Source: Eledone cirrhosa (Eukaryota). Taken from it: a DNA stretch of 64,000 nt. Shown here piece by piece: positions 2,434 to 61,500 of this stretch; the stretch's first letter is position 1; each line of letters begins with the position of its first letter. The position numbers and the translations under genes are program-made. The stretch covers positions 26,350,001 to 26,414,000 of the forward strand of contig OZ024746.1 of the NCBI GenBank assembly GCA_964016885.1, in the 5' to 3' direction. The notes beneath the pieces were generated by a model. That model was not told the origin of the DNA. It searched no databases and saw only the letters and a list, made by a program, of their open reading frames with translations.

Positions 2434-4287
2434 ATACTTTGGGAGGGTCATGTTGACACACGCACCAGTTGCTTTCGCTTTAATTTATTATATATTTATA
2501 AACTTATAAATTTCTGGTTGGTTCCACAACCAGATAGTTGTTTATATATAGTCATAGTTCTTTCGTCACTCTGTGACCTCTTCAGTGATTGGGAATTCCT
2601 TTCTTTGTTTCTGTGCCTCTCCTTTGTTCTGTCCTACGCCATTTTGTTTCTGTGTGTGTGTTGTGTGCTCAGTCTGCGCATGCGCCACATCCGGGTGTCT
2701 GTGTGTGTTTATGTTCATTTATTTATTTGTTTATTTACATGTTACTGGTTGGTTGTTTGTTCTATGTGTGTGTGTGTTTTCATTTTGTCCTTAATTGTAA
2801 GTTGTGATGTTGCTGTTCCACTCATATTTTCTATTTAATTTTGGTTGTAATTCTTTTATGTTTATTGCCTCTGTAATTTGTCTAAACATTGCGTCTTTTC
2901 TGTGTGTAGATTCTATTTTTATTTCTATGTTCTCTAATTTACCCTTGTGTTCTATTTTAGCATGTTGGTAGAGTACAGATGATTCTTTATTATCTTGAAG
3001 GTCTCACCAGTGTTCATTTATCCGTTCCCCTACACTACGAGCTGTCTCACCTATGTACACTATATTTTTGTCTCTACATTGTCCTTCAGTACATCTTATG
3101 CTATACACTACATTTCTAGTTTTACAGTTAATATGGGGGCTTATTTTACAGGTTATACATTTCTTATCTATACATGAGGGTCTTTGAAAAGGGTATGTCT
3201 TGCTAATAAGTGTTTTTACGGAGGTACCTGGTCTTTCTACTATCTTAATATTGAGTTTATGTTTATCTAGGGTCCTTCTAAATTTGTAAGCTAATTCACC
3301 TCTAGGGGTTGTATCGGTGAATATTACACTCTGGTATTTATTGCTATCATACCATGAGTTTATTCTATTAACCTTATTCCTAGTTCTTTCTATTCTATTC
3401 CAAAATTTGCTCCTATACAAAGGGCAGGTCCCATTTGTGTCATTATTTACCATTTTTTCCCATTTGGTTCTGGCTCCTCTATATACTCTGATTTTATCAC
3501 TCTGATTGTAACCAGAGAACTGCATACGGTAGATGAAGTGTTGTATGTGTCTCTCTAGTTCTTTGGGGTTGCATATGCGGGACACGTTTCTCATCACCCG
3601 TACCAAATCCGCAATCAGTATGTTGATTTTGGTATGGTCTGAAAGAGCTGAGTTTCGGTGGATCAGATATTTGGAAGTCATGGGTTTGGCATAATGGGAA
3701 TGGAGGATTTGTTTTTTGTTATTAATGGTATCTAACCAGAGCTCTGTGTCTAGTACAGGTAATCGATGGTTGGGGTGTTTGCTTGGGTAGTCTATAGTAA
3801 CTCTAATACTCTGGTAGATGGAGTTAGCTATTTGCTGGATGCTTTCCATTGTGTTTTTCTCTAATTCCTGACTGTTCTCTAGTGGGGGTGTTTTTACTAC
3901 GATGTTTATATCATCAATGTAGCGGGAGTACATTATCAGGGTTAAGGGGTCTTCTAATTGTTCTTTAAGTTTAAGTTTAAGTCTACTGTCCCACCATACC
4001 ATGAATAGGTTAGCTATGTCGCCTGCAATGCTAACACCAATGGCTGCTCCCTCCTCTTGGGTATATGTTTTTCCATTAAATTTGAACATATGTTCCTTAA
4101 GGGTTAATTTTTTGCTGGGCCCCCACTGCATGTGCAATCATTTTCTTTAGTTCATCGTGGTTTTCGGGGGTCCGTATGGCTTTGGTCCACCCGTTCCATC
4201 TATCTGTGTGGGTTTTCTTGGCCATTGAGGTAATGAGGTAATGCGTGTGTTTCTTATTGGCAACATGACCCTCCCAAAGTATAACAA
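2429..4287 (-). mobile_element. Penelope-like element (probably Naiad clade), 5'-truncated, with inverted copy of its terminus at the 5' end
   Basis: RT motifs QEEGAAIGVSIAGDIANLFM and YSRYIDD, Cys-rich linker, GIY-YIG motif VVYSIRC...YIGETAR. The 27-bp terminus 2429-2455 is the exact reverse complement of 4261-4287. Degenerate hammerhead core (CTGAAGA..GAAA) at about 2522-2595. Confidence 0.9.
2791..4240 (-). pseudogene. PLE RT/GIY-YIG ORF with one frameshift (~4120) and one in-frame TGA (3004-3006)
   Basis: Translation past the TGA continues DLQDNKESSVLYQHAKIEH...RQITEAINIKELQPKLNRKYEWNSNITTYN to TAA at 2791-2793. Confidence 0.85.
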
Positions 4288-5799: not shown

Positions 5800-7436
<1,637 letters not shown>

Positions 7437-7571
7437 ATATATATGTGTATGTGTGTGTTGGCAACATGACACTCCCAATGTATAACAATATATATATATA
7501 CATATACATATAAAAATATAACAAAGAAAGTGTTGTAAGAACCAGGTGGACCATAATGCACCAGGGTATAT

Positions 7572-7870
7572 CATTTCATTTTTTCATTTCATTTTACGTC
7601 CGCTTTTTCCCTGCTTGCAAGGGAGGGACGGGAACTGATTCTGGCTTGATTTCTACAGCTGGATGCCCTTCCTAACACCAACCTCATTTACAGTGAGTGC
7701 TCGGTGCTTTTTTGCCGTGGCACCTCCACGACCACTTTACAGTGGAATGATAGGGACCCCAGTCCCTAACATCTCATTTCTACAGCTGAGTAAACTGGAG
7801 CAATGTGAAATAAAGTGTCTTGCCCAAGGAAACAACACATCGCCCGGTCTGAGAATTGAACTCACAACCT
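7572..7870 (-). mobile_element. CORE-like SINE copy
   Basis: Matches 1601-1957 and 20445-20840. Confidence 0.85.
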
Positions 7871-8259
7871 ATATATATATACAATTACACCTCTCAAAGG
7901 CAATACTCAGGTATGTGACCTCTGGCGCTATGCAGTTTTATGGAAGACCTGCCCTCTATTGTTGTTGGTATGAGACTTATACCTAGTAGGCAACACATTC
8001 CTCAACCTGCTATCCACTCTCATTCACCTCCCTTAGCAGTAACCATACCTCGCCTACTACCCTGTCCACGTCTTTTTTCCCCCAAGCCCCTCCACCCTCC
8101 ATAGTCCCCACTGTGTTGTGTCGGTGACACAACAAAGGTGCTCAGTCCACACTGTAAAGTGGACATGTAAAAGACACAACAAAAAGAACCCAGCACACAC
8201 TGTCAATGTGGTTGGCATTAGGAAGGGCATCCAGCTATAGAAAACCAGCCAGAAACTCG

Positions 8260-9590
8260 TCAGCATGGGGGAAAGTGACTCGGCTGAAGCCGACCTTATG
8301 AGCCTGTACATCTTATACCACCTGAAGAACCTCTTCACAGGCCTAACCAGAGGATTATACTGACATGATGGCCTCTTCGCCCTGCACAAAGTTAACCGCA
8401 GAACCACTGATGGGTTTTGGAGAATCTTAAGCTCATTCTTCCATAATCTAGGATTTAGAATAACCACAGAATCCAATATGACTAGGGCCAACCTTTTAGA
8501 TGTCACTCTCGACTTGGATACTTCCCTCTATTACCCGTACCACAAACCTAACGAGTCCCTCAGATATATAAATGTTAATTCGAACCACCCCAAAACATCA
8601 CAGATAACTTAGTTAAAAGTGTCTCACTCAGAATCTCCGGTCTCTCGGCCAATGAAGATATCCTTAGCGCCTCTGCCTCTTACTACAACAATGCCCTCGC
8701 TTGCAGCGGAATTAAAGAAAAGATTACTTATCTAGAAACCATCCCAAGACTACCTAGGAGAAATAAGCATAGGCACATTATTTGGTACAACACCCCTTCA
8801 ATAGAGAGGTGTCTACACCTATAGCTAGGACTTTCTTCAAATTGCTGAATATACACTTCCCCATACAACATAGGTATCTTTAATAAGACTACAATAAAAC
8901 TCTCCTACTCCACTACACCTAACGTAGCTAGGAATATAGCCAACCTCAACACTACAAAATTAAATAAGCCTACTACCTCCGAACCCAATCGCCGAACGGG
9001 AGCTTTGTGCAACTGCCAAAATAAGGAAGCCCTGCCCACTTGAAAACAAATGTCTGACAAATGACATCGTATATAAATGTGATGTCATCTCAGGCACTGA
9101 TGACAACAACAAAAAGACTTATATCGGAATGACTTCCAACAATTTTAAGACCATACCCACACTTTCAGAAGACCGGACAAATTCAATCAGACAACACTCG
9201 CCTCCTATGTCTGGGACCTCAAGAGGAACTCCACCCCTTTTACGCTCAATGGAAAATACTCCAGAAAGCGCGCTCATACAAGGGAGGACACAAGTGCTGT
9301 GACCTTTGTATTTCAGAGAGCTACGAAATGTTATTTGCCAAGGGCCCGCTACTGAACAAACTCTCTGAACACTGCCAGAATTGCATGCACAAAAGCTTTG
9401 CAACTTTCAAATATCTTAAGCCAGTGTTGATGCCCGATAGCTAAGAAAAATTTTTTTTTTAAAACCCCACTCGACAAAATATCCCCTGTACCTCCATCCC
9501 ACCCTACCCTTATCCCTATCTCGACCCGCCTCACGGCACTATGGTTATGCAAATACTTCTTACCTATCTGTTTTTTCCACATGTATAACG
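8260..9590 (+). mobile_element. Decayed Penelope-like element (RT C-terminal half, GIY-YIG, 3' region)
   Basis: Frameshifted remnants LLDVTLDL, YHKPNESLRYINVNSNHPK, IIWYNTPF, KCLTNDIVYKC, TYIGMTSNNFK. Confidence 0.8.
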
Positions 9591-9608
9591 TACTTCAATA
9601 TATATATA

Positions 9609-9653
<45 letters not shown>

Positions 9654-11039
9654 CACCAACCTGAGGCATATGGCCCTTAAAGCGATGAAATGCCTGGGAC
9701 GGTTGGAGGGTCACTGATGAAGGACCTACTTTTTCACATGCCCCACCATTTGCAACGGGCAGCCTATTATTTTCATATTTACACATAATTTTTATTCTGC
9801 TGCCACTCGTCTGTTCGTTTTTACCCTTTCTAGCAGTCTCTTTCTGTTAGCCTCCTCCTCAACTTTCACTCACTCATTCTCTGTCACTACCTCTCCTCCT
9901 CCTCTTTCCTCCTCCTCCTTCAAGTTTGACCTGTGTGTAATTCTTTTCTCGCGCGGTCTTGACCAAGCTGGTATGGAAATTTTTTTCTCTCTCTCTCTTT
10001 CGTCTGCGACTTCACAAAACTTACGTTTACCGAATTCGTAGACCAGACCCCTTTATCTTCTTCTTCTTCTTCTTCTTCTTCTTCTTCTTCTTCTTCTTCT
10101 TCTTCTTCTTCTTCTTCTTCTTCTTCTTCTTCTTCCTCTTCTCTCTTTTCTCTCTCTCTTTTTTCCCCCCCCGTCAAACTTGGGCGAAATTCTTTCCTCG
10201 CTCACATTTCAACCAGGTTTGATGGTCTTTTGTCTCTTGTTCACGATTTCACCGAGTTTATATTCATAGAGATCTGGGACTTGTCTATTTCTACTCACTT
10301 TCCGTTGCTAAAACTTTTTTGTTTGTTACCCTGGCGTCCCCTTTGTTTACGTGTCCCAACGACTTTTTTTAGCCGTTGTTCGCACCAACCTGAGGCATAT
10401 GGCCCTTAAAGCGATGAAATGCCTGGGACGGTTGGAGGGTCACTGATGAAGGACCTACTTTTTCACATGCCCCACCATTTGCAACGGGCAGCCTATTATT
10501 TTCATATTTACACATAATTTTTATTCTGCTGCCACTCGTCTGTTCGTTTTTACCCTTTCTAGCAGTCTCTTTCTCTGTTAGCCTCCTCCTCAACTTTCAC
10601 TCACTCATTCTCTGTCACTACCTCTCCTCCTCCTCTTTCCTCCTCCTCCTTCAAGTTTGACCTGTGTGTAATTCTTTTCTCGCGCGGTCTTGACCAAGCT
10701 GGTATGGAAATTTTTTTCTCTCTCTCTTTCGTCTGCGACTTCACAAAACTTACGTTTACCGAATTCGTAGACCAGACCCCTTTATCTTCTTCTTCTTCTT
10801 CTTCTTCTTCTTCTTCTTCTTCTTCTTCTTCTTCTTCTTCTTCCTCTTCTCTCTTTTCTCTCTCTCTTCCCCCCCCCCCCGTCAAACTTGGGCGAAATTC
10901 TTTCCTTGCTCACATTTCAACCAGGTTTGATGGTCTTTTGTCTCTTGTTCACGATTTCACCGAGTTTATATTCATAGAGATCTGGGACTTGTCTATTTCT
11001 TCTCACTTTCCGTTTCTTAAACTTTTTTGTTTGTTACCC

Positions 11040-11441
11040 TGTAGCAGTGAATGAAATGTATTTTCCTTCTGCGGCGGAATGGTGTTACGGAGGTAAGTTG
11101 GCTGAAGTGTGAGCCAATCGAAACCTTCGGTGCACTAATTGGACTGTCCAGAACTACGTCACCAGGTGAGCGGAGGTAACCAAGAGAGACATTAGTCTAC
11201 ACGCACCTCTCTTATCGACAAGACCAGGCTACACTCATCGCTGCTAACAACATCTCCATCTTGCAATGAAGCGGACCAAACTACATCCTACACATGTAGA
11301 TACTACCTGTACCTAATGTATCCGTTCAACATGTACAACTAATAAATAGAGTTACAACATCGATAATGGATTTAGTCAATGTTCTAAATGCCTTCTGATT
11401 TCTATTATGTATACCAAGAATTGACCCTAAAACCCGTTATA
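11040..11441 (+). repeat. 5' LTR (TG...TA)
   Basis: No differences from 16367-16768 seen by eye; contains AATAAA. Confidence 0.95.
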
Positions 11442-11443
11442 AA

Positions 11444-11461
11444 TGGTGACCCCGACGTGAT
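11444..11461 (+). promoter_or_regulatory. Primer-binding site complementary to the 3' end of tRNA-Trp
   Basis: TGGTGACCCCGACGTGAT is the reverse complement of the metazoan tRNA-Trp end ATCACGTCGGGGTCACCA. Confidence 0.9.
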
Positions 11462-12098
11462 ACGATACAACAAATCACATTATAAATGGTGACCCGAACG
11501 TTTAAGGACATCAACACAGAAGAAACCACATCTTTCCGTTGCAACGAACACATCAACATTTCGCATCCCCCCCCCCCCCCCCCCCCAAAAAAACAAAGCC
11601 ACTCGCCTTTTCTCGGGGTATGTACGCGATTAGCGTGAGTCCTAATATGTATTTGATATATTGTCTTATTGTTACTAAATCTGCACATCACACCTTCACT
11701 TTCTAACATCACCGAACACATGCGTTAATACAAAAATCTAAATACTCTAAATTTCTGATTGGGCGACGCTATAAAAAAACTAAAAAAAAAAAATGGCCGG
11801 TCAGAGCAAGATGGCCGACTTCCGTCTTCTTCAGCTGTTTTCCCGCCAAAATGACGGAGGCAACGCCATTTTGAAAAGTACACAAAAAAAAAAAAAAAAT
11901 AATAATCGGACAAAGATAAATCATAATTTTTTTTTTAAAGCTTGACGTTTTTCCCTCCAACATTGTTTTTGATATATTTTTCTTTTTCTGTCCTTCACTC
12001 GGATTATATTTTTTCTTGGCCTGAATTTTCACTTTTGTCTCGGTGACAAGTGCAGAGTTGTCCTTTCTTTGCCCTTTGCTTTTACATCAGTATACACA

Positions 12099-13007
12099 AT
12101 GGGTAGCACTTCATTGCCACCGTTTACCGGTGACGTCACTGTCTGGTTCGCCCAGATAGAAGCACATTTCACAGCGAATAACATCACCAGTGACCACAGA
12201 CAGTTAAATCTCCTGTTAAGCGCTTTTCCAGCGTCATTGACGTCGGTCGTCAAAGACTTAATTACAGATCCTCGCCCTGGGGCCACCTATGAGAGCGTGA
12301 AGCTCGAAGTGTTGCGGCGGACCACATTGTCCGCAGAAAAAAAATTTCAGACGCTCGTCAATGACGAACATTTGGGTGATCGGACGCCCACACAACTACT
12401 GCGTCGGATGAGAGAGCTGGCGGAAGATGCCCCAGCTGACAGTGCCCTCCTTAGACAGCTTTTTGTCTCAAGGCTACCCCCCGGTGTTCAGGCGATCTTA
12501 GCGCCCATGATGGAGGCTGCTCCTGTCGACCAGCTAGCGGCTTCGGCCGACAGGGTTATGAGTGTCATCGGACACCCAGCCTCATTTGCCCCCTTCCAGG
12601 CACCTCAGCCACCGGCTGCGGTCAATCCGTTCTCTCCTGCCTCCTTCCAGGCACCCCAGCCACCGGCTGCGGTCAATCCGTTCGCTCCTGTCTCCTTCAA
12701 TGCATCCCAGCCGCCGACTGCGGTCGCTTCCTTCACTCCAGCGGCTGCCAGTTATACCGACCAGTCACTTGCAAATGCAGCAATGCTGCAAGCAATAGAG
12801 CAGCTAACCAAGGAAGTGAGAAAACTAAGCACTCACAGGGCTCATTCGCCTAGACGCCGTTTCCAGAGCCGTTCACCCTCGCCACGACGCCGTCACACAA
12901 GCAGTTCAGGTTTGTGTTACTACCACAGCCGTTTTGGCGCAGCAGCACGCTCCTGTAAACAGCCTTGTACATTTTCGGACCAGGGAAACAGATTTCAGGA
13001 GACCTGA
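12099..13007 (+). CDS. gag: Gag protein of CsRn1-type retrotransposon
   Basis: First ATG at 12099; [26 protein letters not shown], zinc knuckle [18 protein letters not shown] (CHCC); three ~51-bp Pro/Ala-rich repeats at about 12593-12735. Confidence 0.92.
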
Positions 13008-13030
13008 GCACGGCACAGTCTCCTCTGACC
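12983..13030 (+). promoter_or_regulatory. -1 ribosomal frameshift signal
   Basis: Slippery heptamer G GGA AAC (12983-12989) in the gag frame, followed by a possible pseudoknot tcag/ctga plus gagac/gtctc. Confidence 0.75.
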
Positions 13031-16000
13031 CTCCCTAATAACCGTGTGTTTTTCATCACAGACACTGAGTCGCAGGCACGTTGTCTGATCGACACCGGCG
13101 CGGCTTGTAGCATTTGGCCGCTAAAACTTCTCAAAGAGAAGCCCCAACTCTCAACCGTCTCTCTGCAAGCAGTAAACCAGTCACCGATCCCCACGTACGG
13201 TCAGATTTCTCGTTCTTTGAACCTGGAATTGCGTAGAGATTTCACGTGGATCTTCACTGTTGCTGATCTGCCTTACCCCATCCTAGGCTCAGATTTCCTG
13301 CACCACTATAACTTGATAGTGGATATGCGCAGACGCCGGTTGTTGGATGCCAACACAGAACTGTCTGTGCCGGGTACCAGATCGACTGTCTCGTCGGTCA
13401 GCCCGGTCTTCTTTATCGCTGCTACAGAAGATCCTTACCAATCACTTTTGCATTCCTTCCCGGAATTAACAAATTTGAATTTTGTGATGAGTGAGCCTAC
13501 TCACTCCACCAAGCACCACATTGAAACATCCGGAGCTCCTGTGTTTTCGCGCCCTCGCCGTCTCTCTGCTGAGAAACTGAAGGCCGCAAGGGCTGAATTC
13601 AATCACATGCTGCAGCTCGGGATCATTCGCCCATCCTCAAGCCCGTGGGCCGCACCCTTGCATTTGGTACCAAAGCGTTCCGGTGATTGGCGTCCCACTG
13701 GGGACTTTCGCCGGTTAAATGCAATGACGGTACCCGACCGCTACCCGATACCACACATACAGGATTTTGCATCTTCGCTGCATGGATGCAACATATTCTC
13801 CAAATTGGATTTGGTCAAAGCATACCACCAAATCCCGGTGAACCCGGCAGACATACCTAAAACTGCAGTAACAACTCCATTTGGAGCGTTTGAATTTTTG
13901 ACCATGCCTTTCGGTTTGCGAAACGCAGCCAGCACGTTCCAACGATTTATGGATGAAGTTGTGCGCGATTTAGACTTCGTGTACAACTACATCGACGACA
14001 TTCTTGTGGCAAGTGCCTCACCTGAGGAACATGTCAATCACCTCCGTCTCCTGTTCGAGAGATTTCAAAAATACCAAGTGAGAATTAATCCGGCAAAATG
14101 TGTTTTCGGTGCTTCCTCACTTGTCTTCTTGGGCCATGTCATCAGCCCAGAAGGAATTTCACCACTACCTGATAAAGTGAAAGCGGTACAAGACCTCCAA
14201 CCACCCACTTCACTTCGTCAACTACGACATTTTCTTGGGCTACTGAACTATTACAGGCGCTTTATCCCACACTGTGCGGATCTCCTGTCTCCTCTGTCCG
14301 ACCTGTTACGTAACAGGAAAAAGAAGAACGATTCCATTTCATTGGACACGAATCAGCTAAAAGCCTTCGACGAAGTGAAGCGGAAGCTTGCGGAGACATC
14401 ACTGCTTGCACATCCTGTGTCTGGTGCCCAGTTTTCACTGGTTGTTGATGCATCAGGCACAGCTGTAGGTGCAGTACTGCAACAACATCACCAACAACAG
14501 TTACAACCTCTTGCCTACTTTTCTAAACAGCTGAAGCCTGCAGAAACACGGTATAGCACATTCGGCCGTGAACTCTTGGCTATGTACCTTGCAGTGAAAC
14601 ACTTTCGGCATTCACTGGAGGGTCGCCAATTTGTTATATACACTGACCACCGTCCGCTTACGTTCGCACTGCGTTCTAAGCCGGACAAATATTCACCTCG
14701 CGAAACTCGCCACTTGGACTTCGTTTCGCAATTTACCAGCGATATCCGACACATCTCTGGTGAACAGAATGCGGCGGCAGATGCACTGTCTCGCCTCCCA
14801 ATTAATTCCCTGTCATCGCCAGCGGAAATCGACCTCCAACGAATGGCCACAGAACAACCACCTCTGGATACTTTGGACCTCTCGTCTTCTGAATTTGCAA
14901 CTGGCAAATTTGCATATCTGCCTGTGCCCACTTCGGACACACAGATTATCTGCGACACCTCGACAGATGCACCTCGCCCTCTAGTGCCAGTGACTCATCG
15001 TCGAGCAGTTTTCGACACCTTGCACGGTCTGGCACACCCTGGAATATCGACCACAGTGAAGCTCATTTCGGCTAGATTCTTCTGGCCTAATATGAGGCGT
15101 GACATCACTGCCTGGACACGTTCCTGCCTATCCTGCCAAAAGTCAAAGGTGCACAAACACATCCGCGCACCCCTTGGAACTTTCAGCACTCCAGACGCTA
15201 GGTTCAGCCATGTCCATATAGATCTTGTCGGACCATGGCCGGTCAGCCGAGGATTTACATACCTCCTGACCTGCATAGATCGCTTCACACGTTGGCCTGA
15301 AGCCATTCCTTTAAGTGACATTTCGGCGGAATCTGTGGCGCGAGCTCTAGTATCGGGTTGGATATCGCGTTACGAAGTTCCAGCCACTATCACCACTGAC
15401 CGCGGTGGACAATTTGAGTCACACCTTTTCCGAGAGCTTTCAAGGATCCTGGGAATGCAACGCATTCGAACGACCAGCTACCATCCAGCTTCTAACGGAA
15501 TGATTGAACGCTTCCACCGCCAATTGAAAGCCGCACTGCGCGCTTATCCGGATCAGCAGCGGTGGAGCGAATATGTACCAATTGTCCTCCTGGGCTGTCG
15601 TGCAGCCATCAAGGAAGATCTAGGCTACTCCCCCGCCGAGTTGGTTTACGGAGTGCCTATATCTCTGCCTGGTCAGATGTTAGCTCCATTGGACCTACCA
15701 GCAACAGACCCAGCTCTGTATGTGAGCAGACTGCAATCATATTTCAGCAATCTTCCGCCTATGCACCCTCGCCAACAGACAATCAAATCTTCGGTCCCGA
15801 AAGACATTGCTTCATGGACCCACGTCTTTTTACGAAAGGACGCCGTGAGAGCTCCTCTCATGCCACCTTATACCGGTCCCTATCGCGTGCTTGAGCGCAC
15901 AGATAAGCTATTCACCCTAGACATTGGGGGTAAAAAAGAGACTGTGTCCATTGACAGGGTAAAACGGGCCTATACAGACACTCTCACACAAGAGCCCCAT

Positions 16001-16144
16001 TTTCCCCCCACATACACCTGGCATCAGCCAAGCCACAATACACATATAACATCGCACACACCTACACCTACATATGTCACCACCACACGTAGCGGTCGGC
16101 GAGTACATTGGCCCAAGAAGCTTTGCAAGACTCTTTATATATGA
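12983..16144 (+). CDS. pol: Pol polyprotein (protease, RT, RNase H, integrase) in the -1 frame relative to gag
   Basis: LIDTGA, YIDD, VDAS, HHCC zinc finger, DDE core, GPY motif; uninterrupted 1059-codon frame. Confidence 0.95.
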
Positions 16145-16366
16145 ACTATGTTATTTACAGCAATCTTCTTGGAGTTTGCTCCGCCCTTGTATTTGTATTA
16201 AATGTATGAACTAAGGTGAACATTACACTATTTCTGACTTTCCTGTAATATGAACATTTCTTTATCAGTGATATATTTTATTGTGTTTACTATTATATAG
16301 TACTTTTTCTTTCATTCAACTGCTACCCTTATTTCTCTGTCGGCTGTAAGCCTAAGCAGGGGGTGA

Positions 16367-16768
16367 TGTAGCAGTGAATGAAATGTATTTTCCTTCTGCG
16401 GCGGAATGGTGTTACGGAGGTAAGTTGGCTGAAGTGTGAGCCAATCGAAACCTTCGGTGCACTAATTGGACTGTCCAGAACTACGTCACCAGGTGAGCGG
16501 AGGTAACCAAGAGAGACATTAGTCTACACGCACCTCTCTTATCGACAAGACCAGGCTACACTCATCGCTGCTAACAACATCTCCATCTTGCAATGAAGCG
16601 GACCAAACTACATCCTACACATGTAGATACTACCTGTACCTAATGTATCCGTTCAACATGTACAACTAATAAATAGAGTTACAACATCGATAATGGATTT
16701 AGTCAATGTTCTAAATGCCTTCTGATTTCTATTATGTATACCAAGAATTGACCCTAAAACCCGTTATA
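16367..16768 (+). repeat. 3' LTR
   Basis: Copy of 11040-11441, preceded by aagcagggggtga. Confidence 0.95.
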
Positions 16769-17704
16769 ACCCTGGCGTCCCCTTTGTTTACGTGTCCCAA
16801 CGACTTTTTTTAGCCGTTGTTCGCACCAACCTGAGGCATATGGCCCTTAAAGCGATGAAATGCCTGGGACGGTTGGAGGGTCACTGATGAAGGACCTACT
16901 TTTTCACATGCCCCACCATTTGCAACGGGCAGCCTATTATTTTCATATTTACACATAATTTTTATTCTGCTGCCACTCGTCTGTTCGTTTTTACCCTTTC
17001 TAGCAGTCTCTTTCTCTGTTAGCCTCCTCCTCAACTTTCACTCACTCATTCTCTGTCACTACCTCTCCTCCTCCTCTTTCCTCCTCCTCCTTCAAGTTTG
17101 ACCTGTGTGTAATTCTTTTCTCGCGCGGTCTTGACCAAGCTGGTATGGAAATTTTTTTCTCTCTCTCTTTCGTCTGCGACTTCACAAAACTTACGTTTAC
17201 CGAATTCGTAGACCAGACCCCTTTATCTTCTTCTTCTTCTTCTTCTTCTTCTTCTTCTTCTTCTTCTTCTTCTTCTTCTTCTTCTTCTTCTTCTTCTTCT
17301 TCTTCTTCTTCTTCTTCTTCTTCTTCTTCTTCTTCTTCTTCCTCTTCTCTCTTTTCTCTCTCTCTTCCCCCCCCCCCCGTCAAACTTGGGCGAAATTCTT
17401 TCCTTGCTCACATTTCAACCAGGTTTGATGGTCTTTTGTCTCTTGTTCACGATTTCACCGAGTTTATATTCATAGAGATCTGGGACTTGTCTATTTCTTC
17501 TCACTTTCCGTTTCTTAAACTTTTTTGTTTGTTACCCTGGCGTCCCCTTTGTTTACGTGTCCCAACGACTTTTTTTAGCCGTTGTTCGCACCAACCTGAG
17601 GCATATGGCCCTTAAAGCGATGAAATGCCTGGGACGGTTGGAGGGTCACTGATGAAGGACCTACTTTTTCACATGCCCACCATTTGCAACGGGCAGCCTA
17701 TTAT

Positions 17705-17777
<73 letters not shown>

Positions 17778-17782
17778 GATAT

Positions 17783-19850
17783 ATCATCATCATCATCATC
17801 ATTTAACATCTATCTTCAACGCTAGCATGAGTTTAGATGGGAAATGTCCCACTTGAGGCAAGATTGGTCAGGTGACCGTGTCTCGCTCATATAGGACTGT
17901 GTGGCAGGTTTTCTATGGCTGGATGCCCTTCCTAACACCAACCATATTTACAGTGTAGACTGGGAGGTTTTTACCTACGCGGCCACATTACAGCATGGAC
18001 TGTGTGCTTTTTTTGTTGTGACACCTACATGACCTCATTTATTTTGGACTGGATGTTGTGGTACCAACATAACTTTACAGAGAAAGGGTGGTGTTTGTGA
18101 GAGTGGGAGGGTGGAGTAGCGGTAGTGGGATGGGATGTATATTTGGTTAAGAGTTGCTTACTGACTGTAGGTTTCGCTTTCTACATAGGCAAGGCGGGTC
18201 TTCTGTATTACTGCGTGGCACCAAAGATCTCGGTTCAGTGACATTGTCTTAGAGAGGTGCAAGTGTGTAAGGTTGGAATTTATCAAATCATCTCAGGTTT
18301 TCTGGGTCTACCTACTCCGTAACTTCCATCAGTTTTGATCGCCCTGCACTTTTTTATACAGCTGTCGTCTTTCATGCACATCACATGAGCATACCAACGT
18401 AGTCTTCCCTCGAGTAAACAGCATCTGATCCCTCTTATTCCTAATTTCTCACTTAGTTCATTTATGTTTACTGTTCGCATATATTACTATTACACATCCA
18501 ATGGAGCATGCATGCTTCATTCCTTTCCAGTCTGCACAGGTGCTCTGCACACAATGCCCATGTCTCACTACCATGTAACATTGTTGTTCATATACAGGCA
18601 TCATACAGTCTGCCTTTCATTTTTAGAGAGAAACCTTTAGTGGCCAATAGTGGTATAAGCTCTCTGAACTTTTTCCATCCCGTTCTGACTCTGGCTACTG
18701 TACTTTCAGAGCACCCTCCACCACTGCTGATTTTGTCACCCAGGTAACGGAAAGTGTCCACTATTTCTATAGAACCATCTGGGCAATAGAAGGAGCTAGT
18801 ATCCTGCGGGCACTTGCTACTTATTGCACCTGAGCACTGGCCACATATAAAAATCTACGTTCTTAGATAGCTTACCTGTGATCCCACTACATCTTTTATG
18901 CACCCATACTTTGCATTTGGGATATAAAATGGAATTTATGCCTACTCCTTTCCTACACACTGAGCATGGCCATTTCCCAGGGGGGACCTGTACCCTATTT
19001 TCCTTCCTACATTCTAGAACTTTAGTCTTAGACAAGTTAACTTTAAGGCCTTTTGATTTTAGACCATGCTTCCATGTTTGGAATTTCTTCTCTAGTTCAA
19101 CCATTGATTCAGCTATGAGAGTTAAATCATCTGCGTATAGAAGTTCCCATGGACAGCCAGTCTTGAACTTCTCTGTTATAGCCTGAAGGGCAATAATAAA
19201 TAGGAAGGGGCTAAGGACAGAGCCTTGATGGACACCAACTTTTACACTAAATTCTTCACTATATTCATTGTTAATTCTAACCTTGCTGACTGTTTCTTTA
19301 TACATGGCTTCTATAGCTCTCACAAGCCATTCATCTACACCTAGTTTTCTAAGAGCCCACCAGATAATAGCGCAGGGGACTCTTTTAAAGGCTTTCTCCA
19401 AGTCAACAAAAGCTAAGTATAGGGGTTTACTTTTAGCTAGGTAATTCTCCTATAGTTTTCGTACAAGGAAAAGAGTGTCCGTGGTACTTTTACCTGACAC
19501 AAACCCAAACTTCATTTCATCTAGATCAATTTGATCTCAGTTTAGTTGCGCTATAACTCTTTCTGTAAATTTCATGACCTGGTCAACTAACTTAATGCCT
19601 CTAGAGTTTCCCATATCTAGAGCATCTCCTTTACCCTTGTAGCAGTTAATGATGATGCTGCTACACCAGTCATTTGGCATGACCCCCATTCTGTATTACT
19701 TGGTTTACTATCCGGGTGACCATAGTATGTCCCACCATTGCAGATACTTTCAACATCTCAGCAACTATCTCCGAAGGCCCAGCTGCTTTGCCTGTCTTCA
19801 TATCTTTGATTGCCTTAAATATTATACTACTTTTAACTTGCACCACTTTA
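17783..19850 (-). mobile_element. RTE LINE family A, 5'-truncated and decayed
   Basis: GVHQGSVLSP, LLYADD, zinc finger; reverse-complement homolog of 34030-36130. Confidence 0.92.
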
Positions 19851-60350: not shown

Positions 60351-61500
60351 ATTTAGCGAGAATCGCATTTCGGTGGGTAGAAATTAGCGAAACACAACTT
60401 CAATAATGTGCAGACAAGCGCTCTATGCATATAAAGAGGATAGCAGAGCTATAAATATAAGTTAAAATGGTCATACACGCTGAGTCATGGTTAAGAAGCC
60501 ATATCCACCATAGCCAAAGAGCGAACAAGCTAAACGGGTCAAACAAAATGAGATAGAAATGGTTACACAACAGTTAGTTCACCATACCGAGAACAATTGT
60601 TTCACCTTAGCGGATCTTCAGCTCGGAATGGGCATGGTTATAGGAACAGGAAGGACAACCGTACGAACGCGCATGCGCAGAAACCCGGTCACTTCACACA
60701 GGCAATACTAGACTGCGTGCGAGAGATGTAAGGGAGATAACTGCGAAAGTCCGAAAAGTTTTTAGGTTGAAAATAAAATTACAAAGAATCAGTCCGGAGC
60801 CTTGTAGTTATGCAATAGGTGTTTGGCAACGTGTGGACAACGTGTGAAAAATTCACTTCTCGTGTTTAAGCAATCACTATTGCATAATCTCTTTAGAATA
60901 GTTATTCGTTCGTCAATACATAAGCCACACATCGGATTTCCCCTTGCGTATGGCTTGGACTTAGTGATGGTTTTCCATTGAATGGAGTAGTCTATACTTG
61001 AGTCATTGAGGGACCATACGTGGCTCGCGAGTTTCATGGATAAACATCTGTCCGGGTATCTGAAGGTAGACTGGTGGTTCAGGAAACGTTCCTTGAATCA
61101 ACCCTCCACCATGCCCACATAGGATTTGACCTCCTGTGGTTCGTTTGGTCGGTTGGAAGTGACCACAGCTTCATAGATTACAGCTGATGTGTTGCATTGC
61201 TGTTGAAGGGGGCAAGCTTCAGGCTTACGGCAAGAGCACCCTGGTGGGGTGTTGCTCCTAGGGCTGTTGGTGATGTGGGCCTTCATGTTCTTAGCGCAGG
61301 AGTATCCTAGTTTAACTTTGTGTCGGTTAAAGATGGAGCGGTATTTATGACCTATGGGGAAGTGTCTATCTAAGAGGGCTATAAATTTTTTTCCTACATT
61401 GATTTTAACGTTGAGTGAGAATGTAGTAGAGAACCAGATAGTTTGTCTATTGTTGCGCTTACTTTTCTTAATGGTGTTGTTGCTAGTGAGAGAGTAAGTG
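60351..61500 (-). mobile_element. 5'-truncated Penelope-like element (thumb/linker, GIY-YIG, terminal repeat)
   Basis: IWFSTTFSLNVKINVGKKF...CSCRKPEACPL...VIYEA...YVGM, CLNTRSEFFTRCPH; ends at (TA)n; same subgroup as 8260-9590. Confidence 0.88.
60582..60631 (-). ncRNA. Minimal type I hammerhead ribozyme in the PLE terminal repeat
   Basis: Minus strand: ccattccgag-CTGAAGA-tccgctaaggt-GAAA-CAATTG-TT-ctcggtatgg; palindromic stem III. Confidence 0.8.

Follow-up and report, generated by a model that had tools for sequence, protein, structure and literature searches.

Introduction

Hammerhead ribozymes whose conserved blocks stand in a non-circular order are best known from the type-SGC ribozymes (HRIMA-1 and its variants), which cleave in vitro as single motifs (Eckert et al., 2023; PMC10085705). 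In the available part of that paper, the SGC ribozymes come from metatranscriptomes and none from the genome of a known organism, and non-circular permutations are otherwise reported from environmental sequence and from one weak bacterial candidate. Among animal elements, the non-LTR retrozymes (PMC7229834; Li et al., bioRxiv 10.64898/2026.07.22.740005) are non-coding tandem units with one type I hammerhead each, detected with type I descriptors, and they form circles that have been demonstrated and are predicted to be highly self-paired. Naiads, which are Penelope-like elements, insert with 5' truncation, partial tandems and inverted copies at (TA)n targets (Craig et al., 2021; PMC8557442). 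As far as the consulted part of that source goes, they are said to have no canonical hammerhead, eight of them including Naiad_Ovul being marked 'HHR_half_core', and in cephalopods they survive as remnants only. The Penelope-like Hydra-1_Obim also targets (TA)n.

Here we describe a tandem array in a 64,000-nucleotide stretch of the Eledone cirrhosa genome (contig OZ024746.1, positions 26,350,001 to 26,414,000; hereafter the window). We give a probability of about 0.72 to the following reading: the array is a young multimer, truncated at its 5' end, of a non-coding repeat that is dispersed in the genome; each unit carries a hammerhead in S-G-C order that is predicted to cut itself; and the repeat was likely copied in trans by the reverse transcriptase of a Naiad-type Penelope-like element. 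The direct results behind this reading are the core bases, their order, the covarying helices, the dispersion, the fixed 3' end, the random 5' ends and the (TA)n flanks. The repeat shares with the non-LTR retrozymes described in the sources above its non-coding tandem units with one hammerhead each, its dispersal as monomers to multimers, a GC content below 50% and a proposed Penelope-like origin. It differs from them in that its ribozymes have the S-G-C order, which does not fit the type I definition, and in that its unit is 71% pyrimidine with 38% of its bases paired in a predicted circular fold.

The Array and Its Units

The array lies within positions 9651..17712 of the window and consists of three units of about 730 bp and a 125-bp piece, bounded by (TA)n runs. 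The unit heads at 9652, 10381, 16822 and 17587 bear out the first-pass annotation, which had described three units and a 125-bp partial one with (TA)n directly on both sides. A (TA)n/(TG)n microsatellite at 9598..9651, the likely target, forms the 5' flank. Unit 1 (9652..10380, plus strand, 729 bp) is 5'-truncated and its ribozyme motif is without the upstream X and Y strands. Unit 2 is interrupted: its left part (10381..11039, plus strand) ends in an ACCC target duplication, and the second ACCC copy with the remainder of the unit, including the X and Y strands of ribozyme copy 3, follows at 16769..16821 on the same strand; with the insertion removed and the two halves joined it measures 708 bp. 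Unit 3 (16822..17586, plus strand, 765 bp) has the longest (CTT)n tract of the array. The terminal piece (17587..17711, plus strand) stops at the fixed 3' end of the family, which is AU-rich and lies some 105 bases downstream of the predicted cut; a (TA)n run at 17709..17784, again the likely target, follows.

Besides the variable length of (CTT)n, the units are nearly the same, as had been noted earlier: units 2 and 3 are identical across 609 aligned bases outside this tract, and unit 1 differs by six substitutions from each of them. Because the units are identical to this extent, the array is young. Each unit also contains a long hairpin (10167-10231, 10875-10939 and 17373-17437), which gives a weak, sub-threshold mir-2 match, has a related internal copy about 235 bases upstream and is retained in subfamily B; it is possibly a recognition signal.

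The earlier statement that the array holds no credible ORF stands for the units, in which neither stop-free frame (148 and 203 codons) has a Pfam match, but not for the interval as a whole, which contains long ORFs because a Gypsy LTR retrotransposon sits in unit 2 (11040..16768, plus strand). This 5.7-kb passenger lies outside the element proper and accounts for 5,729 of the 8,062 bases of the interval. Its LTRs, 402 bp each (11040-11441 and 16367-16768) with the termini TG...TA, are identical, which makes it very young, and it is flanked by the 4-bp target duplication ACCC. Frames at 11973-13007 and 12959-16144 encode a gag-like product and the reverse transcriptase, RNase H and integrase domains recognised by Pfam, and downstream of the 5' LTR lies a primer-binding site that is presumably of the tRNA-Trp type. 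The 3' LTR ends 25 bases upstream of ribozyme copy 3 and has the same orientation; transcription started there could run through exactly one monomer with a ribozyme at either end (16841-17605).

Broken Penelope-like elements with a C-terminal GIY-YIG domain are present at 8300-9590 and 3004-4137, and the first of them stops at the (TA)n run of the array. A tie between this element and the array was considered and rejected, as the other array copies have unrelated flanks; therefore the two likely share only the (TA)n target.

The Hammerhead Core

Every unit carries a full hammerhead core in the non-circular order S-G-C, with all bases of CUGAnGA, GAAA and UH. From 5' to 3', the unit head reads as a stem III strand, AUA, a stem I strand, a 10-nt linker, GAAA with the second stem III strand, the second stem I strand, and then CUGAUGA. 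In copy 1 (9652..9725, plus strand) the S block is at 9665-9676, GAAA at 9687-9690 and CUGAUGA at 9714-9720, and the predicted cut falls after A9670. The other three copies, all on the plus strand, are complete predicted ribozymes: copy 2 at 10353..10454 (predicted cut after A10399), copy 3 at 16794..16895 (after A16840) and copy 4 at 17559..17660 (after A17605). The reader of the first pass, who did not mention this motif, had guessed at a retrozyme-like layout, and its presence in each unit strengthens that guess.

A descriptor written for the S-G-C motif matches all four window copies and gave no match in 5.12 Mb of simulated sequence; among 3000 simulated units it matched two at loose stem lengths and none at strict ones. 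Rfam gave no hammerhead match in the array units, and a canonical hammerhead of type I, II or III was rejected, the block order not fitting. CUGAUGA, GAAA and the U-A pair at the cut remain intact even in subfamilies whose stems have turned over, and the cleavage triplet mostly alternates between AUA and AUC (20 of 23 clusters), both of which are permitted. The units probably self-cleave, the predicted cut being after unit position 19. Elsewhere in the window, near 60621 on the minus strand, a stretch has the appearance of a minimal canonical hammerhead of type I, with the core CUGAAGA, and therefore both hammerhead orders seem to occur in the Eledone cirrhosa genome.

Predicted Fold and Covariation

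In the predicted fold stems I and III are ordinary, and a four-way junction takes the place of stem II, with one upstream strand that pairs both with the bases following CUGAUGA (helix X) and with those preceding GAAA (helix Z). In copy 2 (plus strand throughout) helix X is formed by 10353-10356/10451-10454, hairpin Y by 10357-10378, helix Z by 10380-10383/10411-10414, P0 by 10385-10390/10430-10435, stem III by 10394-10398/10419-10423 and stem I by 10400-10405/10437-10442, around the core blocks GAAA (10416-10419) and CUGAUGA (10443-10449). P0 is linked to stem III (predicted kink-turn, 10391-10393/10424-10429) by a 3-nt bulge and then GA opposite (U/G)GA, the standard kink-turn pattern, whose positions agree with the definition in the consulted part of PMC3985660. 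A bend at the kink-turn would fold P0 back and bring its 3' strand to stem I, with a single linking base.

Covariation was assessed on a gap-free MAFFT alignment of 27 hand-picked subfamily representatives with an intact cleavage block. In helices Z, P0, III and I, 88.5% of the cells are paired, against 71.0 ± 1.2% after shuffling, a control that related sequences can beat, and 31-44% in slid registers. Nineteen of the 21 predicted pairs of these helices have changed on both sides, including 5/6 in stem I, 4/5 in stem III and 6/6 in P0. Helix X with hairpin Y, available in 14 sequences, is 95.9% paired with double-sided change in 6 of 11 pairs; helix X taken alone varies in one of its four pairs, with three pair types. 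A direct stem II and a GGUU/GACC helix as in HRIMA-1 were both dropped, P0, X and Z covarying instead. The spacing and the kink-turn RA were prescribed by the search pattern from which many of the 27 representatives came, and the invariance of both is therefore partly built in. Subfamilies A-E were found without requiring a kink-turn and the later ones with it; the sequence pattern is present in A, B, D and E, the bend itself being a prediction. Of 23 clusters, 9 have G and 8 have U at position 2n.

Two observations weigh against the reading: sequence conservation is no higher in the stretch holding the ribozyme than in the rest of the unit (85% vs 81-84%, subfamily A vs B), and single-strand folds, by a method blind to pseudoknots, have no significant stability (z -0.5 to -1.9, plus strand). 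Overall, the predicted S-G-C fold is very probably correct.

The motif resembles type SGC, as described in the consulted part of PMC10085705, in the block order, in having all core bases and in stems I and III that cross as pseudoknots. In type SGC, however, stem II is contiguous with both core strands and opens with a G10.1-C11.1 pair, whereas in the array motif its place is taken by helices X, Y and Z with their upstream strand; positions 10.1/11.1 are A and U in the window motif and unpaired in many subfamilies. Lacking this canonical stem II, the window motif falls outside the published SGC descriptor, which requires CGAAA and a G following CUGAUGA. In HRIMA-1 the distal arms of stems I and II are connected by a helix, whereas the strand before stem I in the array motif pairs upstream as P0. 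Unlike type SGC, as far as that source goes, the motif is genomic, in about 21,000 copies, and has P0 and the predicted kink-turn connecting stem III to stem I. A literature search from which subscription journals were largely absent returned no report of this hammerhead form in animal genomes or Naiads.

Genomic Copies and Insertion Sites

A search with the unit head as query gave 784 candidates, the best 40 of which lie on 12 contigs at 95-100% identity. A subfamily 30-mer has 1,158 exact genomic copies (control, 0), a further genomic copy count stands at 7,146, and a generic motif pattern matches 21,198 times, against 38 for its reversed control. Diverged subfamilies were found adjoining the first loci, and the tandem units observed measure about 500 to 800 bp, one row (L127) that begins at a rearranged copy being disregarded. 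Other loci hold inverted pieces and larger arrays, in which as many as nine motifs occur; at one of them (L063:3157-9160) a nine-unit array of a close subfamily stops at an alternative 3' site near position 85.

Insertion anatomy was read at 28 sites, 26 of them independent sites from 30 loci (window included) and the other two at L063 and L066; all were recovered with the unit head as query, which biases the sample toward copies containing the head. The copies have a fixed 3' end, with the TA run beginning at unit positions 120-140 in 25 sites and at 82-85 in the remaining three. The 5' ends are scattered over phases 1-697, five being near the unit head in this head-biased sample and none at the predicted cut (0/28). 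Since the 3' ends are fixed and the 5' ends scattered across these sites, the identical segment with which the window array starts and ends is incidental, a chance product of 5' truncation, and the earlier idea of a layout of "n units plus terminal repeat" is not borne out for the family.

The proposal of a non-autonomous element, also made in the first-pass annotation, gains from the dispersal of the 30-mer copies together with the fixed 3' end, the (TA)n targets and the random 5' truncation. The contrary case named there, a single satellite block with random ends, is excluded by the spread over 12 contigs and the fixed 3' end. The 5' truncation, the (TA)n target, the fixed 3' end and the occurrence of partial tandems and of inverted copies found for the family together match Penelope-like insertions of the kind described for Naiads.

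Two units of the same array are separated by 0-15 substitutions (40 pairs), two units of different arrays by a median of 31 (range 2-65, 663 pairs). The low divergence within arrays fits the copying of one template or of close relatives, but the six changes in unit 1 of the window are more easily explained by a mixed multimer or by template switching than by one circle.

Probable Naiad Ancestry and the Mobilising Enzyme

The 3' ends of Naiads were compared by eye with the array motif, over about 300 bases at each of 30 record junctions in the supplement of PMC8557442. Within these stretches, Naiad_Obim and Naiad_Ovul appear to carry X, Y, Z, P0, kink-turn, III and I in the order of the array. 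The octopus Naiads also have the same 23-nt spacing from GAAA to CUGAUGA, and an 8-nt loop in hairpin Y that is the same as in subfamilies D and H. They differ in helix Z, which has 6 bp and is directly adjacent to GAAA in the octopus Naiads, against 4 bp and one extra base before GAAA in the array. The published Naiad ends carry one motif copy, and the array element, unlike Naiads, has no ORF. By the same inspection, Naiad_Esco of a squid has an S-G-C form with a different internal loop, Naiad_Ptep of a spider is S-G-C, and the 3' ends of the nematode Naiad_Hcon, Naiad_Hpol and Naiad-3_Nbra read as C-S-G; most other Naiads among the 30 junctions have no such motif in the bases viewed. A Naiad ancestry of the array element is likely.

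An intact Naiad was not found in the Eledone cirrhosa genome with three short motif probes, which could miss a diverged family. The first probe recovered one decayed remnant without a hammerhead motif and the third had no match. The second recovered an abundant Penelope-like family with a C-terminal endonuclease, to which all 100 listed of 1,789 motif matches belong (L179-L186); in eight of eight copies read, all broken by stops and frameshifts, there is no CUGANGA core in the 1.5 kb past the motif. No autonomous partner was found by tblastn of the window Penelope pieces against L001-L137, in the frames upstream of the motifs at 20 further loci, or by DNA search with a Naiad-like motif.

These searches bear on the strongest alternative, by which ribozyme and ancestry are the same but mobilisation has passed to a different Penelope-like clade, either a C-terminal-endonuclease family or Hydra, Naiads being dead in the lineage. 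That no intact Naiad was found, that cephalopod Naiads are described only as remnants (consulted part of PMC8557442), that Hydra-1_Obim also targets (TA)n, that the array is young and that the C-terminal-endonuclease family is abundant among the matches listed all agree with it; however, this family lacks the motif in every copy read, those copies are broken, and the short probes could have passed over a diverged Naiad. We consider such a change of enzyme unlikely, while giving it more weight than any other alternative, and a Naiad-type enzyme acting in trans is preferred.

Proposed Cycle and Further Alternatives

With a Naiad-type enzyme, the cycle could run as follows. Read-through transcripts would span two or more units, from which the ribozymes would excise monomers of about 730 nt by cutting after unit position 19, and these may be ligated to circles. 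The Penelope-like enzyme would nick (TA)n DNA, and priming would be internal, at the AU-rich site about 105 nt past the cut, which could pair with the nicked (TA)n. Copying would cross intact junctions over one to nine units and then stop at a random point; since it would run across intact junctions, the template would be a ligated circle or an uncut multimer. A circular RNA intermediate is plausible at somewhat less than even odds. The Gypsy element landed in unit 2 afterwards. Of 24 sequencing runs, 21 have shares of 0.04-0.07, and the only three with a strong share are runs of a single sample whose type is not recorded. Five of the 21, recorded as or presumed to be RNA, gave no contig on the unit, which speaks neither for nor against expression.

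Alternatively, the fold might descend from a hammerhead that has lost its cleavage activity and be retained because the reverse transcriptase uses it as a signal for binding or priming, with an uncleaved multimer as template. A non-canonical stem II, the lack of 5' ends at the predicted cut and the up to 15 substitutions between units of one array would suit such a signal, but CUGAUGA, GAAA and the U-A pair at the cut have stayed intact where the stems turned over, and the triplet keeps to the permitted AUA and AUC in 20 of 23 clusters; we regard a signal of this kind as improbable.

Minimal animal hammerheads are active as dimers. In the array, too, the CUGAUGA strand might pair with the hairpin of the neighbouring unit, so that the ribozyme would act as a dimer and need the tandem layout, and it is true that P0 and stem III give a stable hairpin in single-strand folds and that tandem copies are common. 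The conserved kink-turn and the fixed 1-nt link from P0 to stem I are, however, what a monomer requires, published Naiad ends are single-copy and the SGC ribozymes of PMC10085705 cleave singly, which leaves the dimer slightly less credible than a priming signal.

A satellite or a tandem array of small-RNA genes that resembles a hammerhead by chance, the latter part of which the first-pass annotation had entertained as a mobile small-RNA gene array, would account for the tandem layout with up to nine units at one site, but it is very improbable given the dispersal over many contigs with a fixed 3' end, the chance controls, the covariation, the 21,198 against 38 pattern matches, and Rfam, which on 7000-19000 of the window gave no family at threshold and only sub-threshold microsatellite and mir-2 matches.

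Implications

A permuted hammerhead backed by covariation and present in about 21,000 copies in an animal genome would give the non-circular permutations a host and a role. It also allows the point made in PMC8557442, as far as the consulted part goes, that Naiads proliferate without a canonical hammerhead to be tested directly, since what is marked there as a half core may prove to be an entire ribozyme with its blocks rearranged. The fold further suggests that a stem II is not required of the sequence following CUGAUGA, a point relevant to ribozyme searches, retrozyme counts and RNA design. In the boldest form, to which we give even odds, the hammerheads of Naiads and their non-coding dependants would be permuted non-circularly, as S-G-C in cephalopods and in a spider and as C-S-G in nematodes. 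The ribozyme of the array, with its split stem II, would then be active with the help of the kink-turn and release circles of about 730 nt, and the element would stand for a new class of animal retrozyme, its roughly 21,000 ribozyme copies being invisible to current descriptors.
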